The position numbers were made by a program, and so were the translations under genes. A stretch of 64,000 bases of DNA, taken from positions 673,890 through 737,889 of the forward strand of contig CP060231.1 of the NCBI GenBank assembly GCA_023898625.1, written 5' to 3'. Positions within the stretch are counted from its first letter, which is position 1. Each line of letters begins with the position of its first letter. The notes beneath the pieces were generated by a model that searched no databases, was not told the DNA's origin, and saw only the letters and a list, made by a program, of their open reading frames with translations. This document shows positions 2,688-42,039 of this stretch, piece by piece. This DNA is from Candidatus Nomurabacteria bacterium (lineage in GTDB: Bacteria > Patescibacteriota > Saccharimonadia > Saccharimonadales > JAGQNJ01).

Positions 2688-3710
2688 CTAATCTGTTTGG
2701 TTTAGTGCTTGATGGACTAAAGCGGTGTGCAAAAATATGTCATCACCCATGGCATGGTGTCCGCCCTCAATTGGCATTGATTGAAAACGTTGATCTCCGA
2801 ACGTTTTACCCAATCGAGATGATAGCGCCTTCATAATTCCATTGATTGACAATTCGCTTTCAGTCCCCCATATAAGAGTTGAGTTAGTTTCAGGACATCG
2901 ACGTATAACAGAAGTTAAGTTTTGTTCGAATTTTCCTGATGCAATACCCTTTGAAATAGCTACGTTACTTAACCGAAGTAGCCCTAAGGTGTAGCCGATT
3001 AATCCACCCTGTTTACGACTAGCTATTTTACGAGCATCTTCATATGCTGGCATTTCAGAAGCTTTTACATATCTTTTTAGCTCTGAGTTTGATGACAAGA
3101 AGTCACTACCTAGCTTTCCAAGTGATCTAGGAAGGACAGATGCAGGCTCTATAGGTATTAAGTTTGGAGTTTGAATATCGAAACCGTTGGCTAATGAGGC
3201 AGTGCTTACGGCCTTGTCGGCTCCATACGAATACCCTACTTGGTCTGCAGTATTGATCTTTTGAGTATGAGCATAGAATAGTATAGGTTCAATAGTATCT
3301 CTAAAAATGCCTTTCGATACACGGTCACGATCAGATTTATATAATTTTCCTCCTTTAGCAAGGGGGTGGGCAGGGTTGCTAGAGGCAATGATTCTTGTAT
3401 TTGGTAATGCTGTCGATAACGCCATGAGGCGAGCTTGCATATTCTCATCTATCGAATTACCCATCGGTAGGTGATAAATCATTGTAGATTCCGCCTCTAC
3501 GGGGATAATGTCTATAAGTTTAATCGGGAATCCGTACTGAGGAGATACGGTTGTTTCATGCATATGTGCGTGCGATCTGCTAGATTGAAAATCACTATAC
3601 ATTGAGTTCCAATCTGGGAATGATCGAAGTTTCTCTGCTGTTTCTGTAACTACGTCCAAGGTTGTATCGTCAAACTCGTAGTATTGACTAAGTCGTTCGG
3701 TATTTTGCAT
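2688..3710 (-). CDS. alpha/beta-hydrolase-fold protein (GYSYG nucleophile elbow)
   Basis: The track ORF runs 2688-3740, but its first 10 codons overlap the tRNA. The internal start MQNTERL at 3710 follows GGAGGA plus a 4-nt spacer. Motifs: GYSYGADK and GGHHAMGDD. Confidence 0.7.
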   Translation of the reverse strand: MQNTERLSQYYEFDDTTLDVVTETAEKLRSFPDWNSMYSDFQSSRSHAHMHETTVSPQYGFPIKLIDIIPVEAESTMIYHLPMGNSIDENMQARLMALSTALPNTRIIASSNPAHPLAKGGKLYKSDRDRVSKGIFRDTIEPILFYAHTQKINTADQVGYSYGADKAVSTASLANGFDIQTPNLIPIEPASVLPRSLGKLGSDFLSSNSELKRYVKASEMPAYEDARKIASRKQGGLIGYTLGLLRLSNVAISKGIASGKFEQNLTSVIRRCPETNSTLIWGTESELSINGIMKALSSRLGKTFGDQRFQSMPIEGGHHAMGDDIFLHTALVHQALNQTD

Positions 3711-3729
3711 AAAATCCTCCATATTAGTT

Positions 3730-3806
3730 TGGTGGAGCATAAGGGATTCGAACCCTTGACCTCATCCATGCCATGGATGCGCGCTAGCCAACTGCGCCAA
3801 TGCCCC
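3730..3806 (-). tRNA. tRNA-Ala (anticodon GGC), CCA encoded
   Basis: Hand-folded cloverleaf: acceptor GGGGCAT/ATGCTCC with the G3:U70 alanine identity pair, anticodon stem CATCC/GGATG with loop ATGGCAT, T arm AAGGG-TTCGAAT-CCCTT, 3-prime ACCA. Confidence 0.9.
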
Positions 3807-13957: not shown

Positions 13958-14038
13958 TGAATTTTGCAGTATGATTGACAACAGAGGTGATTAACTGTAA
14001 AATAGGGTGGTTAATAATAAAGAAGGGATGAAGCAATA

Positions 14039-14446
14039 ATGCTCGTTATACGTTTACAGCGTACTGGCCGAAAAGGTCACGCACAATTCCGTGTGGTCGT
14101 TCAAGATTCACGCAGGACCCCAACAAGTGGACGCGTAGTAGCCAAGATTGGTCACTATGATCCACACACAAAACAAATAGTTATTAATAAAGAACAAGCG
14201 CAGTATTATCTGGATCATGGTGCTCAGCCAACAGATAGAGTTGCATTACTTCTAAAGAAAGAAGGGGTTAAGTTACCTAAGTGGGTAACTTTACCAGCCA
14301 AGCAAGAAGGCAAAATTCGTAATCCAGAAAAGTTGCGTAAAAATCAACCAAAAGAAGAGACTGCACCCGAACAACCTAAAGAGGATACAGAAGATGCCAC
14401 TGTATCTGATAGCGAGTCGACCGAATCCGAACAAGCTGAAGCATAA
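14039..14446 (+). CDS. rpsP: 30S ribosomal protein S16 with an acidic/lysine-rich C-terminal extension
   Basis: N-terminus MLVIRLQRTGRKGHAQFRVVV is typical of bS16. Confidence 0.95.
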   Translation: MLVIRLQRTGRKGHAQFRVVVQDSRRTPTSGRVVAKIGHYDPHTKQIVINKEQAQYYLDHGAQPTDRVALLLKKEGVKLPKWVTLPAKQEGKIRNPEKLRKNQPKEETAPEQPKEDTEDATVSDSESTESEQAEA

Positions 14447-35201: not shown

Positions 35202-35626
35202 ATCTGCAGACAGTTAGTGAGTTTTTAGATACTCAAGAAACATGTGTCTTATCGACTGTTAGTAGTGAAGGCTGGCCAATGTCGGCGACAGTTGGATTTT
35301 CTCATGATAGTGAATTTGCGATATTAATTGGCACTGATAATACAACTCGCAAGTACAAAAATTTAATTAGCAACTCAAAAGTGTCTATTGTGGTGGGTGT
35401 AACTTCGCCAAAGACCGTCCAGATTCAAGGTGTTGCTAAAGAGGTCAATGCTGATGATATAGCCAATAGACTGGAGCTACATTTTAATAAATTGCCTTCT
35501 GCAAAAACTTTCTATGACACACCAGGTCAACGATATTTTATCATCACTCCTACCTGGTTAAGGATGACGGATTATTCACAAAAGCCATCAATTTTTGAAG
35601 CAGAGGAGTTTAATTATGAAGATTAG
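35198..35626 (+). CDS. pyridoxamine 5-prime-phosphate oxidase-like FMN-binding split-barrel protein
   Basis: 142 aa; ETCVLSTVSSEGWPMSATV... resembles the PNPOx/general-stress-26 family; ATGA overlap and GAAGGAGG upstream. Confidence 0.65.
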   Translation: MNLQTVSEFLDTQETCVLSTVSSEGWPMSATVGFSHDSEFAILIGTDNTTRKYKNLISNSKVSIVVGVTSPKTVQIQGVAKEVNADDIANRLELHFNKLPSAKTFYDTPGQRYFIITPTWLRMTDYSQKPSIFEAEEFNYED

Positions 35627-38105
35627 TGTTAACTGGATCAAAGAATTTACCGACATTAAGTTATCCGTAGATGAACTGGTCGCTAAGATTGGCTCTCAGC
35701 TCGGTGAAGTGGAGGAAGTAATCAATCTGGGTGAGCGATACCAAGGGATTATCGTAGCAAAAGTTGTTGCTTGCGAAAAACACCCAAATGCCGATAGGCT
35801 TAACGTTTGTTTGTTGGATGATGGAGGGGTAACTAAGGGTGTCAAAAGAAACAAGGATGGATTTGTTCAGGTTGTATGCGGTGCGCCTAATGTCAGAAAA
35901 GGTATTTCTGTGGCTTGGTTGCCTCCAGGCGTAATAGTGCCTAGTTCGTATACCAATGAACAGTTTAGACTCGAAGCTCGGGAACTGCGAGGTGTGCTTA
36001 GTAACGGCATGATTGCAAGTGGTCAAGAGTTGGCGATTAATAACGATCATTCCGGAATACTTATACTCGATAAACCCGCAAAACCAGGTGAACTATTTGC
36101 TGATATATATCAATTAAATGACTATATAATTGATGTTGAAAATAAGATGTTTACTCATCGACCAGATTGTTTTGGTCAACTTGGCATAGCCCGTGAAATA
36201 GCTGGAATATCTGGAATAAAGTTTATTAGCCCTGATTGGTACCTGAGCGAGATGGATAGCTTAAAGCCAGAATCTTCTGCAAATCTACAGGTTAGTATTG
36301 ATAACAAATTACCAGATACAGTACCCCGTTTTATGCTTTTGCCTATGAGTGATGTTAAGGTTAATCAGGCGCCGATAATGATTCAGAGCTTTTTGAGTCG
36401 TGTTGGCATTAATCCAGTTAATAATATAGTTGATATCACAAATTTTGTGATGGCCCTAACAGCACAGCCGATGCATGCCTATGATTTCGATAAATTAACT
36501 GCACTAGATAATGCAAAAGTTGCAAATTTTGTAATCAGAAAGTCAAAAAAGGGCGAAAAGATCGCTTTACTAAACGGCAAAACTGTCGAACCTACAGAAG
36601 ATTCAATTATGATTGCCACAAAAAGTTCTTCAATTGGTATTGGGGGTGTAATGGGTGGGTCTTCAACAGAGGTTGATTATAATACAAAGAATATTGTACT
36701 CGAATGCGCTAGCTTTGATATGTATGCCATAAGACGTTCTAGTATGTCAAACGGCTTGTTTACTGATGCAGTTACCAGATTTAGTAAAGGTCAGAGCCAA
36801 AGACAAAATGATCGAATTATGGCATATGCAACAGCGTGGGTTAAAAAATTAGCTGGAGGAAAGGTTGCCGGCAAACTCCAAGACGATTTAGAAAACTTTG
36901 GCAAAATCAAACCAGTCACAGTTAGTGTAGAATTTATAAACCAGAGACTAGGATCCACGTTTTCTGCTAAGCAAATTATTAAACTGCTTAGTAATGTCGA
37001 ATTTCTAGTTGAAGAAAAGGGTGGCAATTTGTATGTCACAGTACCGTTTTGGCGAACAGATATTGAAATTGCCGAAGATATTGTTGAGGAAGTTGGACGA
37101 CTGCACGGATATGACAACCTACCAAAGAACCTACCTTATAGGGATATTACGCCCGCTAGTAATAATTCAATACTTCAAATTAAGTCTAAAGCTAGGAACA
37201 TATTATCCTCTGCTGGTGCGAATGAAGTATTAACATATAGTTTTGTTCACGGAAGATTACTGGATGCGGTGGGGCAGGATAAAAATATTGCTTATAAAAT
37301 AAACAATGCATTAAGCCCTCAACTACAATATTATCGATTGAGTTTATTGCCGAGTTTACTTGAAAAGGTCCATCCAAATATTAAGTCTGGCCATAGTGAA
37401 TTTGCGATGTTCGAAATAAACAAAACTCACGATAAATCTAATATACATGAAGATGGTTTACCGATTGAAGAGGAACGTTTAGCGTTGGTTTTTGTAGCAG
37501 ACACTAAAACCGCCAAAGAATATCAAGGGAGTGCCTTTTATCAGGCTAAGATATATTTACAGTCATTACTTAAATCTTTCGGCTTTGAGGATTTGGTTTT
37601 TCAGCCTGCGTCATCACACAAGCCTAAAACAGAAACGGGCAAGCAAATTCTAGCACCATTTGAGCTGACTCGTACGGCATATTGTAAAACGAAAGATGGC
37701 GTACTGCTAGGGGTTATTGGAGAGATTAACCACAAAGTTAAAGCTAATATGAAGTTACCAGAATTCATAGCTGGTTTTGAAGTAAATCTAAAAATGCTAG
37801 ATGCATACAAGGGGTCTTTGGCCTACAAACCATTGCCGAGGTTCCCTAAGACTCAACAAGATATCACCCTTAAGGTGTCGCTTGATATTCCGCATGCAAC
37901 TATTGAACAAAGTTTATTAACAGAGCTATCAAAAATATCAAAAGAGCACGGTTATGTGACAGAAATATCTACCATTGATATTTATAAGAAAGATAATAGC
38001 AAGAATGTAACTTTTAGGATTCAACTACACCATCCAGAACGTACTTTGACTACACAAGAGGTTAATAAAGTTATAGATACCGTGGCGGGTTTGGGTCAAA
38101 AATAG
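35616..38105 (+). CDS. pheT: phenylalanyl-tRNA synthetase beta subunit
   Basis: Start refined to MKISVNWIKEF, the typical PheT N-terminus, after GGAG; tRNA-binding, B3/4, B5 and FDX-ACB length. Confidence 0.95.
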   Translation: MKISVNWIKEFTDIKLSVDELVAKIGSQLGEVEEVINLGERYQGIIVAKVVACEKHPNADRLNVCLLDDGGVTKGVKRNKDGFVQVVCGAPNVRKGISVAWLPPGVIVPSSYTNEQFRLEARELRGVLSNGMIASGQELAINNDHSGILILDKPAKPGELFADIYQLNDYIIDVENKMFTHRPDCFGQLGIAREIAGISGIKFISPDWYLSEMDSLKPESSANLQVSIDNKLPDTVPRFMLLPMSDVKVNQAPIMIQSFLSRVGINPVNNIVDITNFVMALTAQPMHAYDFDKLTALDNAKVANFVIRKSKKGEKIALLNGKTVEPTEDSIMIATKSSSIGIGGVMGGSSTEVDYNTKNIVLECASFDMYAIRRSSMSNGLFTDAVTRFSKGQSQRQNDRIMAYATAWVKKLAGGKVAGKLQDDLENFGKIKPVTVSVEFINQRLGSTFSAKQIIKLLSNVEFLVEEKGGNLYVTVPFWRTDIEIAEDIVEEVGRLHGYDNLPKNLPYRDITPASNNSILQIKSKARNILSSAGANEVLTYSFVHGRLLDAVGQDKNIAYKINNALSPQLQYYRLSLLPSLLEKVHPNIKSGHSEFAMFEINKTHDKSNIHEDGLPIEEERLALVFVADTKTAKEYQGSAFYQAKIYLQSLLKSFGFEDLVFQPASSHKPKTETGKQILAPFELTRTAYCKTKDGVLLGVIGEINHKVKANMKLPEFIAGFEVNLKMLDAYKGSLAYKPLPRFPKTQQDITLKVSLDIPHATIEQSLLTELSKISKEHGYVTEISTIDIYKKDNSKNVTFRIQLHHPERTLTTQEVNKVIDTVAGLGQK

Positions 38106-38276
38106 TTTTTTTGGATCGCAAAATGTAATTTATATATAAATGACTACATGTTGGTGCTGAATTTTTTAGTTGAAGTCGCTCTGCTGACATGCTTTTCATT
38201 GACCTCTCCTAAATCGGCATGCTAACATAAAGCTAATACTTAATTCTAAGAGGGCTCATCAATATAGTAATTACTT

Positions 38277-39404
38277 ATGGCAAGGTTACCAATACCAGGA
38301 CAAGATAGAGGTGTATGGGGTGATATCCTTAACGAGTATTTATCTGTATCCCATGAATCAGACGGTACGTTAAAATCGAGCGCAATACCTCCAGGATCAG
38401 GTGCAACTGGAGCTACTGGCCCCATTGGTTCCGTGGGCGCCACAGGATCAACTGGACTTCAGGGTGCAACTGGAGCAACAGGCCCTGGCTCTATTGGCGC
38501 AACAGGTCCAATGGGTTCAACGGGTCCAATTGGGGTAGCTGGCGCAACAGGACCAACGGGTCCAGGTGTTATAACTGGTGGTACTACTGGACAAGTTCTG
38601 GCTAAAGCTTCAAATGCAGACAATGACACTACCTGGGTGAACATTGCAGACAATGCCGTCACTTCAGTTAATGGTGATACTGGCCCAATCGTTAACTTAA
38701 ATGCAACAGATGTAGGAGCAGCTCCAACTTCACATTCTCATGATGCCACAGACATCACTTCAGGGACAGTGGCTACAACTCGGCTCGGGTCAGGTACGGC
38801 GGACTCGACGAAGTTCCTGCGTGGCGACCAGACGTGGGCGGCACCGATGATGCGGGAACTGCCCCTCTCGTCGGGGTATCTCATCGCTCTCCCCGCTGGT
38901 GGCGTTGGCTCCTTCGGATTGTCAGCGTCGGCTGGTCGGTTCTGGTTGATCCCGATGTGGTTGCCCGCTGGAACCTAGGACCGTGTCGGTGTCGCCACCA
39001 CCGGAGCGGGGACCACCACATGGCGACTCGGTGCCTACAAGGCCAACCCGTCGACGCTCATGCCCGACGGCACGGCGCTGATACAAGAGTTCGGCACCAT
39101 CGACCTGAGCGTCACGCCCGGAGAGTTGTCTGTGTCCACATCGTTCACGGTGCCCACCTCTGGGCTCTACTGGATGGCCGTGCTGGTCGATTCGTACACG
39201 TCGGCCCCATCGGCGGTGGGATGGCAAGGTCAATACACGGTCCCGCCGGTCCCGTGGATGCCTGTGACCGTGCACCAGATCGCTCTTGGGCGATCGTTGT
39301 GGCTTCGGATGGCCTACTCGGTCCCGACGGGTGCGGTTCCGGCGACGTGTCCGACCACAGCGTGGAGCGATCTGGGACCCCAGGTCAGATTGAGGGTGGC
39401 GTGA
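38277..39404 (+). pseudogene. phage tail-fibre-like protein with collagen-like repeats; single frame interrupted by an in-frame TAG at 38976-38978
   Basis: N-terminus [36 protein letters not shown] repeats and the [18 protein letters not shown] motif resemble actinophage minor tail or fibre proteins. The same frame, with the same G/C third-position bias, continues after the TAG to a TGA at 39402-39404. Confidence 0.7.
38400..38567 (+). repeat. collagen-like G-X-Y triplet repeat (about 17 triplets, one register shift at GPGSIG)
   Basis: [56 protein letters not shown] read directly from the translation. Confidence 0.9.
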
Positions 39405-39545
39405 TGAACGAGTCCATCTTCTCGAACGGTCGCCTCGTCGAGCAGACCGTCGACAACGGCGACGGCACCGGCACCCGCACCACCTTCGACGCCGACGGCA
39501 ACGTCGACACGGTCGAACAACTCACCGGGCTACCCATCCCCGAAC
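38780..39545 (+). other. high-GC patch (about 65-68% G+C) embedded in frame in low-GC genes
   Basis: 41/60 G+C at 38821-38880 against 25/60 at 38641-38700; codons are dominated by tcg/acg/ccg/gtc/ggc; AT-rich sequence resumes after about 39545. Confidence 0.85.
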
Positions 39546-39631
39546 CAGTTCCACCTACACAAGCAGAACAGATAGCAGAGTTACAGGCTACCGTTGCCAA
39601 GCTTAAGGACGCTTTGAAAAAACGTGACTAA
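39404..39631 (+). CDS. small protein translationally coupled to the fibre gene (candidate fibre assembly or partner protein)
   Basis: GTGATGA junction: the stop at 39402-39404 overlaps the ATG at 39404. 75 aa, MNESIFSNGRLVEQTVDNGDGTGTRTTFDADGNVDTVEQL... with a C-terminal coiled-coil-like AEQIAELQATVAKLKDALKK. Confidence 0.6.
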   Translation: MNESIFSNGRLVEQTVDNGDGTGTRTTFDADGNVDTVEQLTGLPIPEPVPPTQAEQIAELQATVAKLKDALKKRD

Positions 39632-39674
39632 TATCTAGGCTTACTAACAGAGATGCGAATCATAAAGTATGCTA

Positions 39675-39703
39675 TTGACATTTCGGTAAGTAGTTATTAT
39701 AAT
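39675..39703 (+). promoter_or_regulatory. perfect consensus sigma70 promoter
   Basis: TTGACA (39675-39680), exactly 17-nt spacer, TATAAT (39698-39703); no plausible ORF follows. Confidence 0.7.
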
Positions 39704-39834
39704 CAACTTAGTTTGGTTGAGTCTTATGGATTCCCAGGCAGGACTTTGACAGATGTATATAGGTAGGCAACAGTATTAGTGCATAACTATTTTTGTGTAT
39801 TATTACTGTTGTCTAAATAATAGACTAATTTCGT

Positions 39835-40100
39835 GTCGGCGCCAGGATGGGGATGGCACCGGCCTGCAGAGAAGGTGAGTTGAGCGAGAAATCGTTCCTC
39901 CTGCCACCACAAGGGGCAAGGCAGTATCATGCAAACCTGGGCGGGTTTCGTGATGCCTTCTCCACACCCTACGCCTTCTTGGCTTATCCCAGTAGGTCGA
40001 GGAGGTTACCCGGACCTTCGTTGTGTGCTAAGCATCGCTTCGCATGGCGGAGGTCCGGGACCAATTGGTCTATTAGTAGTGTCGAGCACTAAGGTTGAGT
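39835..40100 (+). ncRNA. unclassified GC-rich structured RNA candidate
   Basis: 36/60 G+C at 39841-39900 against 25/60 in the flank. Four-way junction closed by GAGAAGG (39869-75) / CCTTCTC (39956-62), with hairpins at 39883-96 (GAAA tetraloop), 39901-24 and 39926-54. 12-bp helix 40009-20 / 40048-59. The strand is inferred from the GNRA loop and the upstream promoter. Confidence 0.45.
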
Positions 40101-40269
40101 TTATTAGAGCATTTTTGCTCCTCACTTCTTCGCTCCATTAATTACTAATATACATCTGTCCTTTCATCAGAGCATGTATTTATATACATTCTGTGATGAG
40201 AGAATAAGTCATAAAATGTCCTACAATCAATGTCGTATATTTAGGCTTTTGCATGTAAACTACTAACTG

Positions 40270-42039
40270 ATGAAACATCTAATTAAAATTCTAAAGTATA
40301 CATCTAGCCTTAGATGGTATTACATAATTATCAGTATACTTAGTGTTCTTTTTGCGGTAACCGGCTTAATTACTCCTTTGCTTTCAGGTAAAGCGATAGA
40401 CTTGCTAAAATCTGGATCTACAGATACTAGAGCATTACTTTTAATTGTTGTGGCTATTTTTGTTTTAGATGTATTTTCTACGATAATATCTAACATTTCT
40501 GGATATATGGGTGACGTAATGTCAACCAAGCTACAACGAATATTAAGCACGCGTTACTACGAGCATTTGCTAGAGTTACCACAAAGTTACTATGACAAAG
40601 AGCTTTCTGGCAAGATTATAAATCGTTTAAATCGTTCCATTGCCCAAATTAGCAACTTTATGCAGATGTGGAGCAACAACTTTTTGCAGTTTGTATTCAG
40701 TACAGTGTTGGCTTTGGCGATTATTGCATATTTTAGTTGGCCAATAGCGTTATTGTTAGCCAGCCTGTATCCGATTTATATATTCATGACAATTAAAACA
40801 AGTGGAAAGTGGCTGAAATACCAAGCAAAGCTTAATAAAAATTGGGACATTGCAACTGGTAGGTTTGCAGAAAGCATTGGACAAATTAAGGTTGTTAAAA
40901 GTTTTGTCAGGGAGGACGGCGAACTTTCTTATTTTGATAAATATTACAAAAAAATAGTCAATATTGTATATCCGCAATCAAGGCATTGGCACGTGAGAGA
41001 TGTACAAAGAAGACTTATCTTAAATGTGATATTTTTCTGCGTTTACGCTTTGATATTTTATCAAGCTGTTAATGGCCAATTTACGCCTGGGCAAGCAGTT
41101 ACGCTAATTTTATATGCTATGCAAATCAGAATTCCGATATTTACGGTGAGTTTCTTAGTGGACAGCACTCAAAAAGCTGTTGCTGATAGCAAGGATTATT
41201 TTGAAGTTATGAACGTAACGCCTGACATAAAAGACTTATCAACAGCAAAAGACCTGGTGGTGAGCAAGGGTGAAATAAGCTTTAGCAATGTAACTTTCGC
41301 CTATGACGAAAAACCAGTAATTAAAAATGTGACTTTTGATGTGCTTCCGGATACTAAAATTGCTTTGGTGGGCGAAAGTGGAGAAGGTAAAACCACCATC
41401 ACAAATTTATTGATGAGATTATACGAAACAAATAAAGGAGAGATATTGATTGATGGTCAAAATATCGCAGACGTAAAGCAGGCCAGTCTACGTAAACAAA
41501 TTGGCGCGGTGTTTCAAGAACCAGCCCTGTTTAGTGGAACAATTAAAGAGAACATTGCTTATGCGAATCCAAAAGCCAGCATTAAAGATATAATAAACGC
41601 TTCTAAAGACGCAAATGCACATGATTTTATTTCAAAACTTGAACATGGCTATGATAGCGAAATTGGCGAGCGAGGCCTTAAGTTATCGGGTGGCCAGAAA
41701 CAGCGGATCGCTATAGCCAGAGCCTTGCTAAAAAATGCTCCAATATTAATACTTGACGAGGCTACCAGTAGTCTAGATAGCAAAAGTGAACAAATGGTTC
41801 AAGAAGCATTAAAGCGCTTAATGAAAGGTAGGACAACCCTGATTGTGGCGCATAGATTGAGTACTATTCAGCACGTTGATACTATAATTACATTAAAGAA
41901 CGGCAAGATAGATGAAATTGGCTCTCCAGAAAAGCTGGCAATTTCAGGCGGAATCTATTCCCAGCTTCTAAACTTACAAAATACTGCCGTGGAGTCCTCG
42001 CGAAAAGAACGCTTAAGCAAGTTTGATATCGCAAGCTAG
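40270..42039 (+). CDS. ABC exporter, fused permease/ATPase (MsbA-like)
   Basis: 589 aa; six N-terminal TM helices, Walker A GESGEGKTT, signature LSGGQKQR, Walker B ILILDEATS. Confidence 0.9.
   Translation: MKHLIKILKYTSSLRWYYIIISILSVLFAVTGLITPLLSGKAIDLLKSGSTDTRALLLIVVAIFVLDVFSTIISNISGYMGDVMSTKLQRILSTRYYEHLLELPQSYYDKELSGKIINRLNRSIAQISNFMQMWSNNFLQFVFSTVLALAIIAYFSWPIALLLASLYPIYIFMTIKTSGKWLKYQAKLNKNWDIATGRFAESIGQIKVVKSFVREDGELSYFDKYYKKIVNIVYPQSRHWHVRDVQRRLILNVIFFCVYALIFYQAVNGQFTPGQAVTLILYAMQIRIPIFTVSFLVDSTQKAVADSKDYFEVMNVTPDIKDLSTAKDLVVSKGEISFSNVTFAYDEKPVIKNVTFDVLPDTKIALVGESGEGKTTITNLLMRLYETNKGEILIDGQNIADVKQASLRKQIGAVFQEPALFSGTIKENIAYANPKASIKDIINASKDANAHDFISKLEHGYDSEIGERGLKLSGGQKQRIAIARALLKNAPILILDEATSSLDSKSEQMVQEALKRLMKGRTTLIVAHRLSTIQHVDTIITLKNGKIDEIGSPEKLAISGGIYSQLLNLQNTAVESSRKERLSKFDIAS

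Follow-up and report, generated by a model that had tools for sequence, protein, structure and literature searches.

Few large structured RNAs without an assigned function are known from bacteria, and every class described so far has proved to have an unexpected role. The 6S RNA of Escherichia coli is co-transcribed with ygfA and represents the stable non-coding 5′ part of a transcript that runs into a protein gene, with the ends of the RNA paired in a closing stem. The C-rich-loop RNAs, 6C in Actinobacteria and RsaE/RoxS in Firmicutes, are 60–120 nucleotides (nt) long and carry C-run loops of strict sequence. To our knowledge, no large structured RNA is on record for the Saccharibacteria, ultrasmall and host-dependent bacteria with little space for idle sequence in their reduced genomes. 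The subject of this paper is a locus found in 64,000 nt of contig CP060231.1 (positions 673,890 to 737,889; the whole stretch is referred to as the window), in which an RNA of about 493 nt lies upstream of an ABC exporter gene, at positions ~39710–40202 of the + strand.

This RNA is conserved, strand-specific and made of many helices, with its own strong promoter and with its two ends clamped together. We rate it as a new RNA class of narrow known range that groups with the large orphan bacterial RNAs by size and complexity, with no shared sequence or fold.

Promoter and Extent of the RNA

The RNA appears to be read on the + strand from a promoter of its own, which consists of TTGACA, a 17-nt spacer and TATAAT (39675–39703, + strand) and was picked up both by promoter prediction and by a consensus scan. 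A previous reading of the window from its sequence only (the sequence-only reading) had called it the only perfect sigma-70 consensus present, and it is indeed the one exact match in the 64 kb. The window has just one further near-consensus promoter, TTGACA-17-TAAAAT at 13975–14003, with one mismatch, located just upstream of an open reading frame (ORF) that starts at 14039.

Homologues were found by fetching loci with relatives of the exporter, followed by an exact-sequence look-up of further exporter homologues. Four homologous intergenic regions (L001, L004, L005 and L006) were found first, and later L132, L134, L137, L139, L141 and a near-identical strain, L149. There are ten distinct homologues, 500–700 nt in length, all upstream of the orthologous ABC exporter gene and on its strand. 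The promoter is kept in all ten, with TTGAC at −35, a spacer of 16–18 nt and TAnnnT at −10, at a fixed distance of 43–48 nt ahead of a long-range stem, P1. Most of the ten also have a TG-extended −10 element. Transcription in the window would start at about 39710, and the transcript would begin directly with a hairpin, P0.

The interval 39835–40100 has 54–59% G+C, compared to 27–36% in the flanks, in agreement with the GC-rich island in an AT-rich context noted before. However, the element does not end at 40140, as had been thought, but at about 40202. The shorter version left out 60 nt and with them the 3′ strand of P1 (40148–40160) and the hairpin at 40161–40202.

The claim that no credible ORF follows the promoter needs some qualification, since ORFs of 81 and 70 amino acids (aa) do exist in the island. 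Neither has a Pfam match, and strains of one species differ by 1-, 2- and 65-nt insertions and deletions (indels) across the island that break both frames. Because of these non-triplet indels and the lack of a family match, the RNA locus is considered not to be coding, and no conserved protein frame was found that would count against an RNA.

Covariation and Known Families

Covariation was assessed in two alignments. For the periphery, both end modules, 5′ and 3′, were aligned across the ten sequences, giving four helices with 47 pairs in all; the core alignment holds the seven sequences that could be aligned there (59 pairs). In the periphery, 96.4% of the cells are paired, compared to 38–42% when the partners are slid, 21 of the 47 pairs are doubly changed, and none of 500 shuffles reached any of the measures. 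The corresponding numbers for the core are 93.6% paired, 40–45% after sliding and 24 doubly changed pairs out of 59. Together, 45 of 106 pairs have double compensatory changes, so that the comparison of related intergenic regions that had been proposed as a check gives strong support for the structure.

The same data identify the functional strand. G-U pairs, one of which is invariant in all ten sequences, make up 11–12% of the paired cells and thereby point to the + strand; pairing on the other strand would be 82–85%. The full-length + strand (39710–40202) folds with a predicted energy of −215 kcal/mol (z = −11.2), compared to z = −5.7 for the − strand.

Rfam 15 was searched with all 4227 models, which include RNase P, tmRNA, 6S, signal recognition particle (SRP) RNA, OLE, ROOL, GOLLD, raiA, HEARO, riboswitches, ribozymes and group I/II introns. 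The sole match in the whole window is a tRNA at 3733–3806. On the island, with E values up to 10 allowed, the best scores are 13–16 bits (E 2.8–9.9), which is chance level when gathering thresholds are 50–98, and eight homologous loci gave no match at E up to 1. ARAGORN found no tmRNA at 39500–40400, and literature searches, some of them aimed at Saccharibacteria and Patescibacteria, brought up no description of such an RNA. No Rfam family was thus matched, in line with the unknown class that had been suggested. Taken with the homologues and the covariation, this upholds the earlier idea of a new structured RNA behind a strong promoter.

The Constant Periphery

The promoter, P0, P1, P2, the 3′ hairpin and P7 are the constant parts; in the core, entire hairpins are gained or lost from one lineage to another. 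P0 is the 5′-terminal hairpin, GUUUGG-UU-GAGUC / GAUUC-CCAGGC (39711–39739, + strand), and begins at the first bases that are predicted to be transcribed. It has 12 pairs, six of them doubly changed, is 99% paired and includes one invariant G-U pair. With the covariance models R1 and R2 it reaches 116 and 70 bits.

P0 is followed at 39743–39760 by an invariant box, ACUUUGACAGAUGUA, and the 5′ strand of P1 (39748–39760), as defined by the covariation alignment. The 3′ strand, AUAUACAUCUGUC, is found at 40148–40160 on the same strand and pairs with 39748–39760 to make a 13-bp stem. A 10-bp core of this stem is invariant in the ten sequences and a 3–4 bp extension covaries (UAU/AUA, UGAU/AUCA, AGAU/AUCU and AAAA/UUUU). 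P1 ties the 5′ and 3′ ends of the RNA together around the GC-rich core, and P7 comes next after it.

P2, an AT-rich hairpin (UAGGCAACAGUA.../...UACUGUUGUCUA; 39764–39815, + strand), emerges from both the energy fold and covariation. The sequence-only reading had drawn two hairpins in this leader. The first, caacagta/tactgttg, is real, with double changes at 11 of the 18 pairs of P2. The second, gtcta/tagac, is better explained by a 13-bp long-range helix (39818–39830/40064–40076), and its GUCUA is already paired in the AT-rich hairpin.

On the 3′ side, the covariation alignment defines a hairpin, GAG-UUUAUUA-GAGC / GCUC-CUC, with a pyrimidine tract after it (40097–40136, + strand; the hairpin itself is 40097–40123). 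The tract reads CCUCCUUU and CUCCGC in relatives and CUCACUUCUUCGCUCC in the window. P7 (CUUUCAUCAGAGCAUGUAU / AUACAUUCUGUGAUGAGAG; 40161–40202, + strand) is conserved as a hairpin in all ten homologues with differing sequences, directly after P1 in nine of them and a few bases later in L137. It has no U tract behind it and is not scored as an intrinsic terminator. A hammerhead-like string in P7, CUGUGAUGAG, was considered and rejected, as it is not conserved and has no Rfam support.

The Variable Core

The core includes a second long-range helix that connects UAAUAGACUAAUU (39818–39830, + strand) with AAUUGGUCUAUUA (40064–40076, + strand). Both strands come from the energy fold and from the core alignment, and three of its six core pairs are doubly changed. 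Inside, the core alignment has a hairpin with a G-rich loop, AGGAUGGGGAU (39833–39863, + strand), in which GAUGGGGAUGGCAC is identical in four sequences.

The P3 domain (39866–39962, + strand; energy fold and covariation) has a closing helix, GCAGAGAAGG / CCUUCUC, around three hairpins at 39882–39897 (with a GAAA loop at 39888–39891), 39898–39925 and 39927–39954. The 7-bp helix (39869–39875/39956–39962) that had been folded by hand, with its three hairpins and GAAA cap, is reproduced by the energy fold and covaries in relatives, where the closing helix is 11–12 bp and seven of its 12 pairs are doubly changed.

Between 39962 and 39963 (+ strand), the window copy lacks a 65-nt hairpin, P4, which was lost between two TCTC repeats. 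In relatives, P4 consists of CGUGGAGACCCAACC, the loop CCUUCCCUUCCUCUCC, and then GGUUGGGUCUCCACA. It is present in L001, L149, L004, L006, L132, L134 and L141, with 15 pairs, five of them doubly changed. Its pyrimidine loop, CCUUCCUCUCC, is 11–18 nt long and predicted to be 60–100% unpaired in five relatives, and CUCC occurs 4–8 times per RNA, compared to 1–3 times for GGAG. L149 has retained P4, with an exporter that is 99% identical to that of the window and an identical downstream sequence. Moreover, two independent contigs of the same strain group (L131 1–175, L149 1–70) break inside the RNA. This pattern suggests that alleles with and without P4 may coexist in the population.

The next hairpin (39973–40006, + strand; energy fold) carries a motif, CUGGCUUAUCCC, that is conserved in sequence, with a pairing register that varies between relatives. 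It is followed by a long GC-rich hairpin (40009–40059, + strand) that is predicted to have 19 bp and a short apical stem. The 12-bp helix previously proposed here (40009–40020/40048–40059) recurs in the energy fold and is kept in five of the seven aligned relatives. This helix is 12–13 bp long, appears in a strand-swapped version in L005 and L139, is absent in L132 and L141, and none is listed for L137. The junction at 40080–40096 (+ strand) contains GUCGAGCA, and its GTCGAG is invariant in the first five sequences that were aligned. An 8-mer that had been seen at both ends of the element, GGTTGAGT, turns out to be a single-base accident of the window strain, since the two closest strains have GTTTGAGT in place of its 3′ copy. 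Kissing of the G-rich loop with the P4 loop was considered by eye and rejected, as the possible pairings have no consistent covariation.

Distribution of Homologues

The carriers fall in one Saccharimonadales clade on the exporter tree, together with about ten non-carriers. In these interleaved relatives without the RNA, pheT abuts the exporter with a gap of 0–68 nt. In this exporter-anchored sample, the distance from the RNA to the exporter start is 47–223 nt in eight of the ten copies, and a separate transcription unit lies between them in the other two.

Exact-pattern scans of a metagenome collection with the conserved 5′ box gave 0 matches at first and then 51 chance ones, none with a 3′ partner. 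The same pattern in viral contigs gave only two chance matches, and blastn of the RNA against phage and plasmid collections gave no match. R1, built on the 5′ module, and R2, built on P0 and the box, found only the known copies and a second unit in L005, L139 and L140. As far as searched, the family thus appears to be confined to one Saccharimonadales clade.

A Second Unit in the Same Frame

In two relatives, a second transcription unit is located between the RNA and the exporter (L005 1040–1450, L139 2080–2460), and the unit is also found at L140 1–390. In order, a promoter of the unit itself and a hairpin like P0 are followed by the same box as in the RNA (ACAUUGACAAGUGUAGAU), a strong ribosome-binding site AGGGGGUGAU, an ORF and an end stem that is a perfect 14-nt complement of the box. 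The ORF encodes a zinc ribbon of 37–42 aa in which CxxCxGxG occurs twice. The same leader and stem thus bracket a small protein gene in these relatives. Since both are reused in L005 and L139, leader and end stem can be described as a frame that holds either a structured RNA or a small gene. The frame was found nowhere else in the window, with search filters off, or in 46 loci.

Genomic Setting

The window belongs to a Saccharibacteria (TM7) chromosome of about 39% G+C. The gene order is pheS, three small genes, pheT (35595–38105), a collagen-like fibre gene, the RNA island, the ABC exporter, a NUDIX gene and an FKBP gene. The exporter gene (40270–42039, + strand) encodes ABC_membrane and ABC_tran domains. 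Its message is probably co-transcribed with the RNA, and its start has no Shine–Dalgarno sequence in front. The best relatives of the exporter are all from metagenome-assembled Saccharibacteria/Saccharimonadales genomes. The closest ones outside Saccharibacteria are from Corynebacterium (L031, L036), with 46–47% identity, compared to about 33–38% in the other non-Saccharibacteria loci listed. This likeness is compatible with gene exchange between these epibionts and their actinobacterial hosts.

TATAAT-like hexamers are found 5–15 nt ahead of many start codons in the window (e.g., 4824, 9186, 16395, 17099, 33567 and 56805), and leaderless or very short-leader messages seem to be common in this genome. 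The tRNA gene at 3733–3806 (− strand, 62.8 bits) overlaps the start of a 350-aa ORF (2688–3740, − strand) that has no Pfam match.

A fibre-like cassette (38106–39650) sits between pheT and the RNA promoter. It includes a frame at 38277–39404, interrupted by a single in-frame TGA at 38976–38978, with collagen Gly-X-Y repeats followed by a C-terminal part of 66% G+C. After the collagen frame comes an overlapping 75-aa ORF (39404–39631) that is coiled-coil-like. The cassette has weak tblastn matches to Corynebacterium and Streptomyces phage tail proteins and looks like it came from a high-GC source, either an actinobacterial host or a phage. In L001, L132, L134, L139 and L141, the five relatives with gene calls or upstream sequence read, pheT is directly upstream of the RNA. 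The cassette must therefore have been inserted, specifically in this strain, between pheT and the promoter of the RNA, and its absence at L001, a locus of the same species, makes it look recently acquired.

Proposed Mechanism

We consider the chances about even that the locus encodes a large non-coding RNA, highly structured and of an undescribed family, in which an rRNA-like frame releases a stable, trans-acting core. The frame would function in the manner of an rRNA operon leader with its processing stalk. In this model, P0 would protect or stabilise the 5′ end, and the invariant box, CUUUGACAG, which is boxA-like, would let RNA polymerase read through a long, untranslated and structured template. 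P1 would be cut by a double-strand-specific enzyme of the RNase III type, releasing the core as a stable RNA, after which the exporter message would start with P7. The core would then be trans-acting: its exposed pyrimidine-rich single strands, namely CCUUCCUCUCC in the P4 loop and the 3′ tract (CCUCCUUU or CUCCGC), would pair with purine-rich RNA or hold a protein. This last step is only suggested by the excess of CUCC and by the exposed pyrimidine loop of the predicted fold. The window copy, having lost P4, may be a weakened allele.

BoxA sites are known from long non-coding transcripts such as rRNA and CRISPR arrays (PMC7665894, PMC5725501), and their consensus drifts between phyla (PMC7665894). 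The box GGACTTTGACA, which is invariant in the ten homologues, agrees with seven of the ten specified positions of GYTCTTTAANA (PMC5725501), and its assignment as a boxA-type site is a lead only. No rRNA operon was present in any locus fetched.

Several observations weigh against this mechanism. The consensus to which the box was compared, with agreement at only seven of ten positions, is gamma-proteobacterial. Only 24 of the 56 genes in the window have a Shine–Dalgarno-like sequence, and sequences complementary to the pyrimidine loop show no enrichment there (13 matches, 9.7 expected). With Shine–Dalgarno usage only moderate, the idea of an anti-Shine–Dalgarno RNA is speculation. The window copy lacks P4, the very hairpin that bears the loop. 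All homologues were anchored on the exporter, so the linkage to this gene is partly an effect of ascertainment, and the lack of a terminator between RNA and exporter fits the role of a leader equally well. The RNA is absent from about ten interleaved relatives and is therefore dispensable or has moved. Finally, it is from the sequence that we infer the start and end of the RNA and any processing.

A more ambitious version, held at distinctly less than even confidence, is that of a new class of large, ornate RNA specific to Saccharibacteria. Its rRNA-like frame would also wrap a protein gene, its released GC-rich core would serve as a stable ribonucleoprotein or scaffold like OLE, ROOL and GOLLD, and its modular hairpins would be gained and lost even within a species.

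Alternative Explanations

The main alternative is that the RNA has no function of its own and serves the exporter operon as a 5′ leader in cis, be it as a riboswitch-like sensor, as an attenuator or by processive antitermination. Its folding would then set exporter transcription or translation. This is possible but doubtful. All ten copies have the same position and strand relative to the exporter, the gap from P1 to the ATG is only 47–62 nt in L004, L006, L134 and L141, and the + strand of the window has neither a predicted promoter nor a predicted terminator from P7 to the start codon (40203–40269). Because the exporter abuts pheT where the RNA is absent, insertion of the RNA supplies the exporter with its nearest promoter. 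However, the core is variable and the periphery constant, which is the opposite of a ligand-binding aptamer, and whole domains, such as P4 and the 12-bp helix, come and go. The exporter has no Shine–Dalgarno sequence to sequester, there is no terminator/antiterminator pair, no cis-regulatory family in Rfam was matched, and 500–700 nt far exceeds known leaders of such type. In L005 and L139, the RNA is separated from the exporter by about 480–500 nt that hold another promoter, a small gene and a hairpin. For the cis-regulator offered in the sequence-only reading, the evidence points both ways: no canonical terminator or separate promoter intervenes in the window, and two relatives have a complete further transcription unit in between. 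A known housekeeping RNA (RNase P RNA, tmRNA, 6S, SRP RNA or a fragment of rRNA) that has diverged so far in this phylum that the Rfam models missed it is very unlikely. A strong promoter, a GC-rich fold in an AT-rich genome and an end-to-end stem are typical of stable RNAs, and there are likenesses by eye of GGAGGUCCGGG to RNase P CR-I, of GGCUUAUC to CR-V, and of the hairpin followed by CCUCCUUU to the 3′ end of 16S rRNA. These resemblances are scattered, not colinear and missing in relatives, and the RNase P-like strings have their order reversed in the window and are absent in L132, L137 and L141. The searches with Rfam and ARAGORN argue further against this, as do the closely related genomes without the RNA at this site and a core too variable for an essential ribozyme. 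6S RNA was rejected on the multi-branched fold of 493–700 nt, two to three times its size, without a central bubble, and on the lack of an Rfam match.

That the structure is incidental to a DNA-level element, a miniature transposon or invertible segment with GACAGATGTA...TACATCTGTC as terminal repeats for a recombinase, is likewise very unlikely. Perfect inverted repeats of 13–14 bp do flank variable cargo, in L005 and L139 even as two tandem units with different cargo, and presence and absence alternate at one site among relatives. But conservation continues beyond the repeats, to the promoter and P0 on one side and to P7 on the other, and the CTTT that flanks both arms in the window like a target-site duplication is not kept in the other homologues. 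The element is single-copy in the window (filters off) and found nowhere else in the 46 loci, all copies have the same orientation, it is absent from phage, plasmid and viral collections, and no recombinase gene is nearby. Dozens of its internal helices covary with G-U pairs, which would be meaningless in double-stranded DNA. The least probable explanation is a decayed coding remnant of GC-rich foreign DNA that came with the fibre cassette, or an RNA that belongs to it. The 66% G+C fibre-like gene 200 nt upstream and the 81- and 70-aa ORFs that can be drawn in the island invite this explanation, but the substitutions track base pairing rather than codons, and the ORFs are neither matched in Pfam nor kept between strains. 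The cassette is missing from L001 and the eight other homologous loci, all of which keep the RNA, and the tie between RNA and cassette suggested by the sequence-only reading is thereby refuted. The coding or fibre-linked remnant can be regarded as effectively refuted.

Comparison with Known Systems

With ten sequences that covary strongly, a defined promoter and natural variants in which single domains are missing, there is enough material for a search model and for the design of experiments. The reusable frame may reflect a more general strategy of these bacteria for expressing and processing highly transcribed cassettes. Even if it served solely as a leader, the RNA would exceed every other one known for a transporter gene in size and modularity.

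Riboswitches and other structured leaders share with the RNA a position upstream of a transporter gene, on the same strand and with no terminator between. They differ from it in that the RNA has no conserved core resembling a ligand pocket, no expression platform, an extreme length and, in two relatives, an intervening unit. 6C, RsaE and RoxS are similar in having C+U-rich hairpin loops able to pair with purine-rich ribosome-binding sites without a chaperone. Here, however, the loop is part of a single module of a 500-nt RNA and does not occur in the window copy, and no enrichment of targets was found. Like 6S RNA and ygfA, the RNA would come from the 5′ part of a transcript that reaches a protein gene and has paired ends, but it is two to three times larger, has neither a central bubble nor an Rfam match to 6S, and is absent from close relatives.

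In an rRNA operon leader and stalk the parts come in the same order: first a near-consensus promoter and a hairpin, then a conserved U-rich box that ends in ACA, and last a long stem that pairs the flanks of the cargo. As in an rRNA operon, the cargo is untranslated and highly structured, and a CCUCCUUU tract immediately precedes the 3′ strand of the stem, similar to the 3′ end of 16S rRNA. In contrast to rRNA operons, the cargo matches no rRNA model, the box has only part of the specified boxA positions, and the same frame carries a protein gene in two relatives.

OLE, ROOL, GOLLD and raiA are large orphan structured RNAs of other bacteria. They, too, are several hundred nt long, have many helices supported by covariation, are GC-rich relative to their genomes and have a narrow phylogenetic range, and their biochemical function, like that of the present RNA, is unknown. 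OLE is also located within a run of co-oriented genes, beside a gene for a membrane protein. The RNA differs from all four in having no match to their Rfam models and no dedicated partner protein gene linked to it, and it belongs to another phylum, Saccharibacteria, with a core that is far more variable than theirs.

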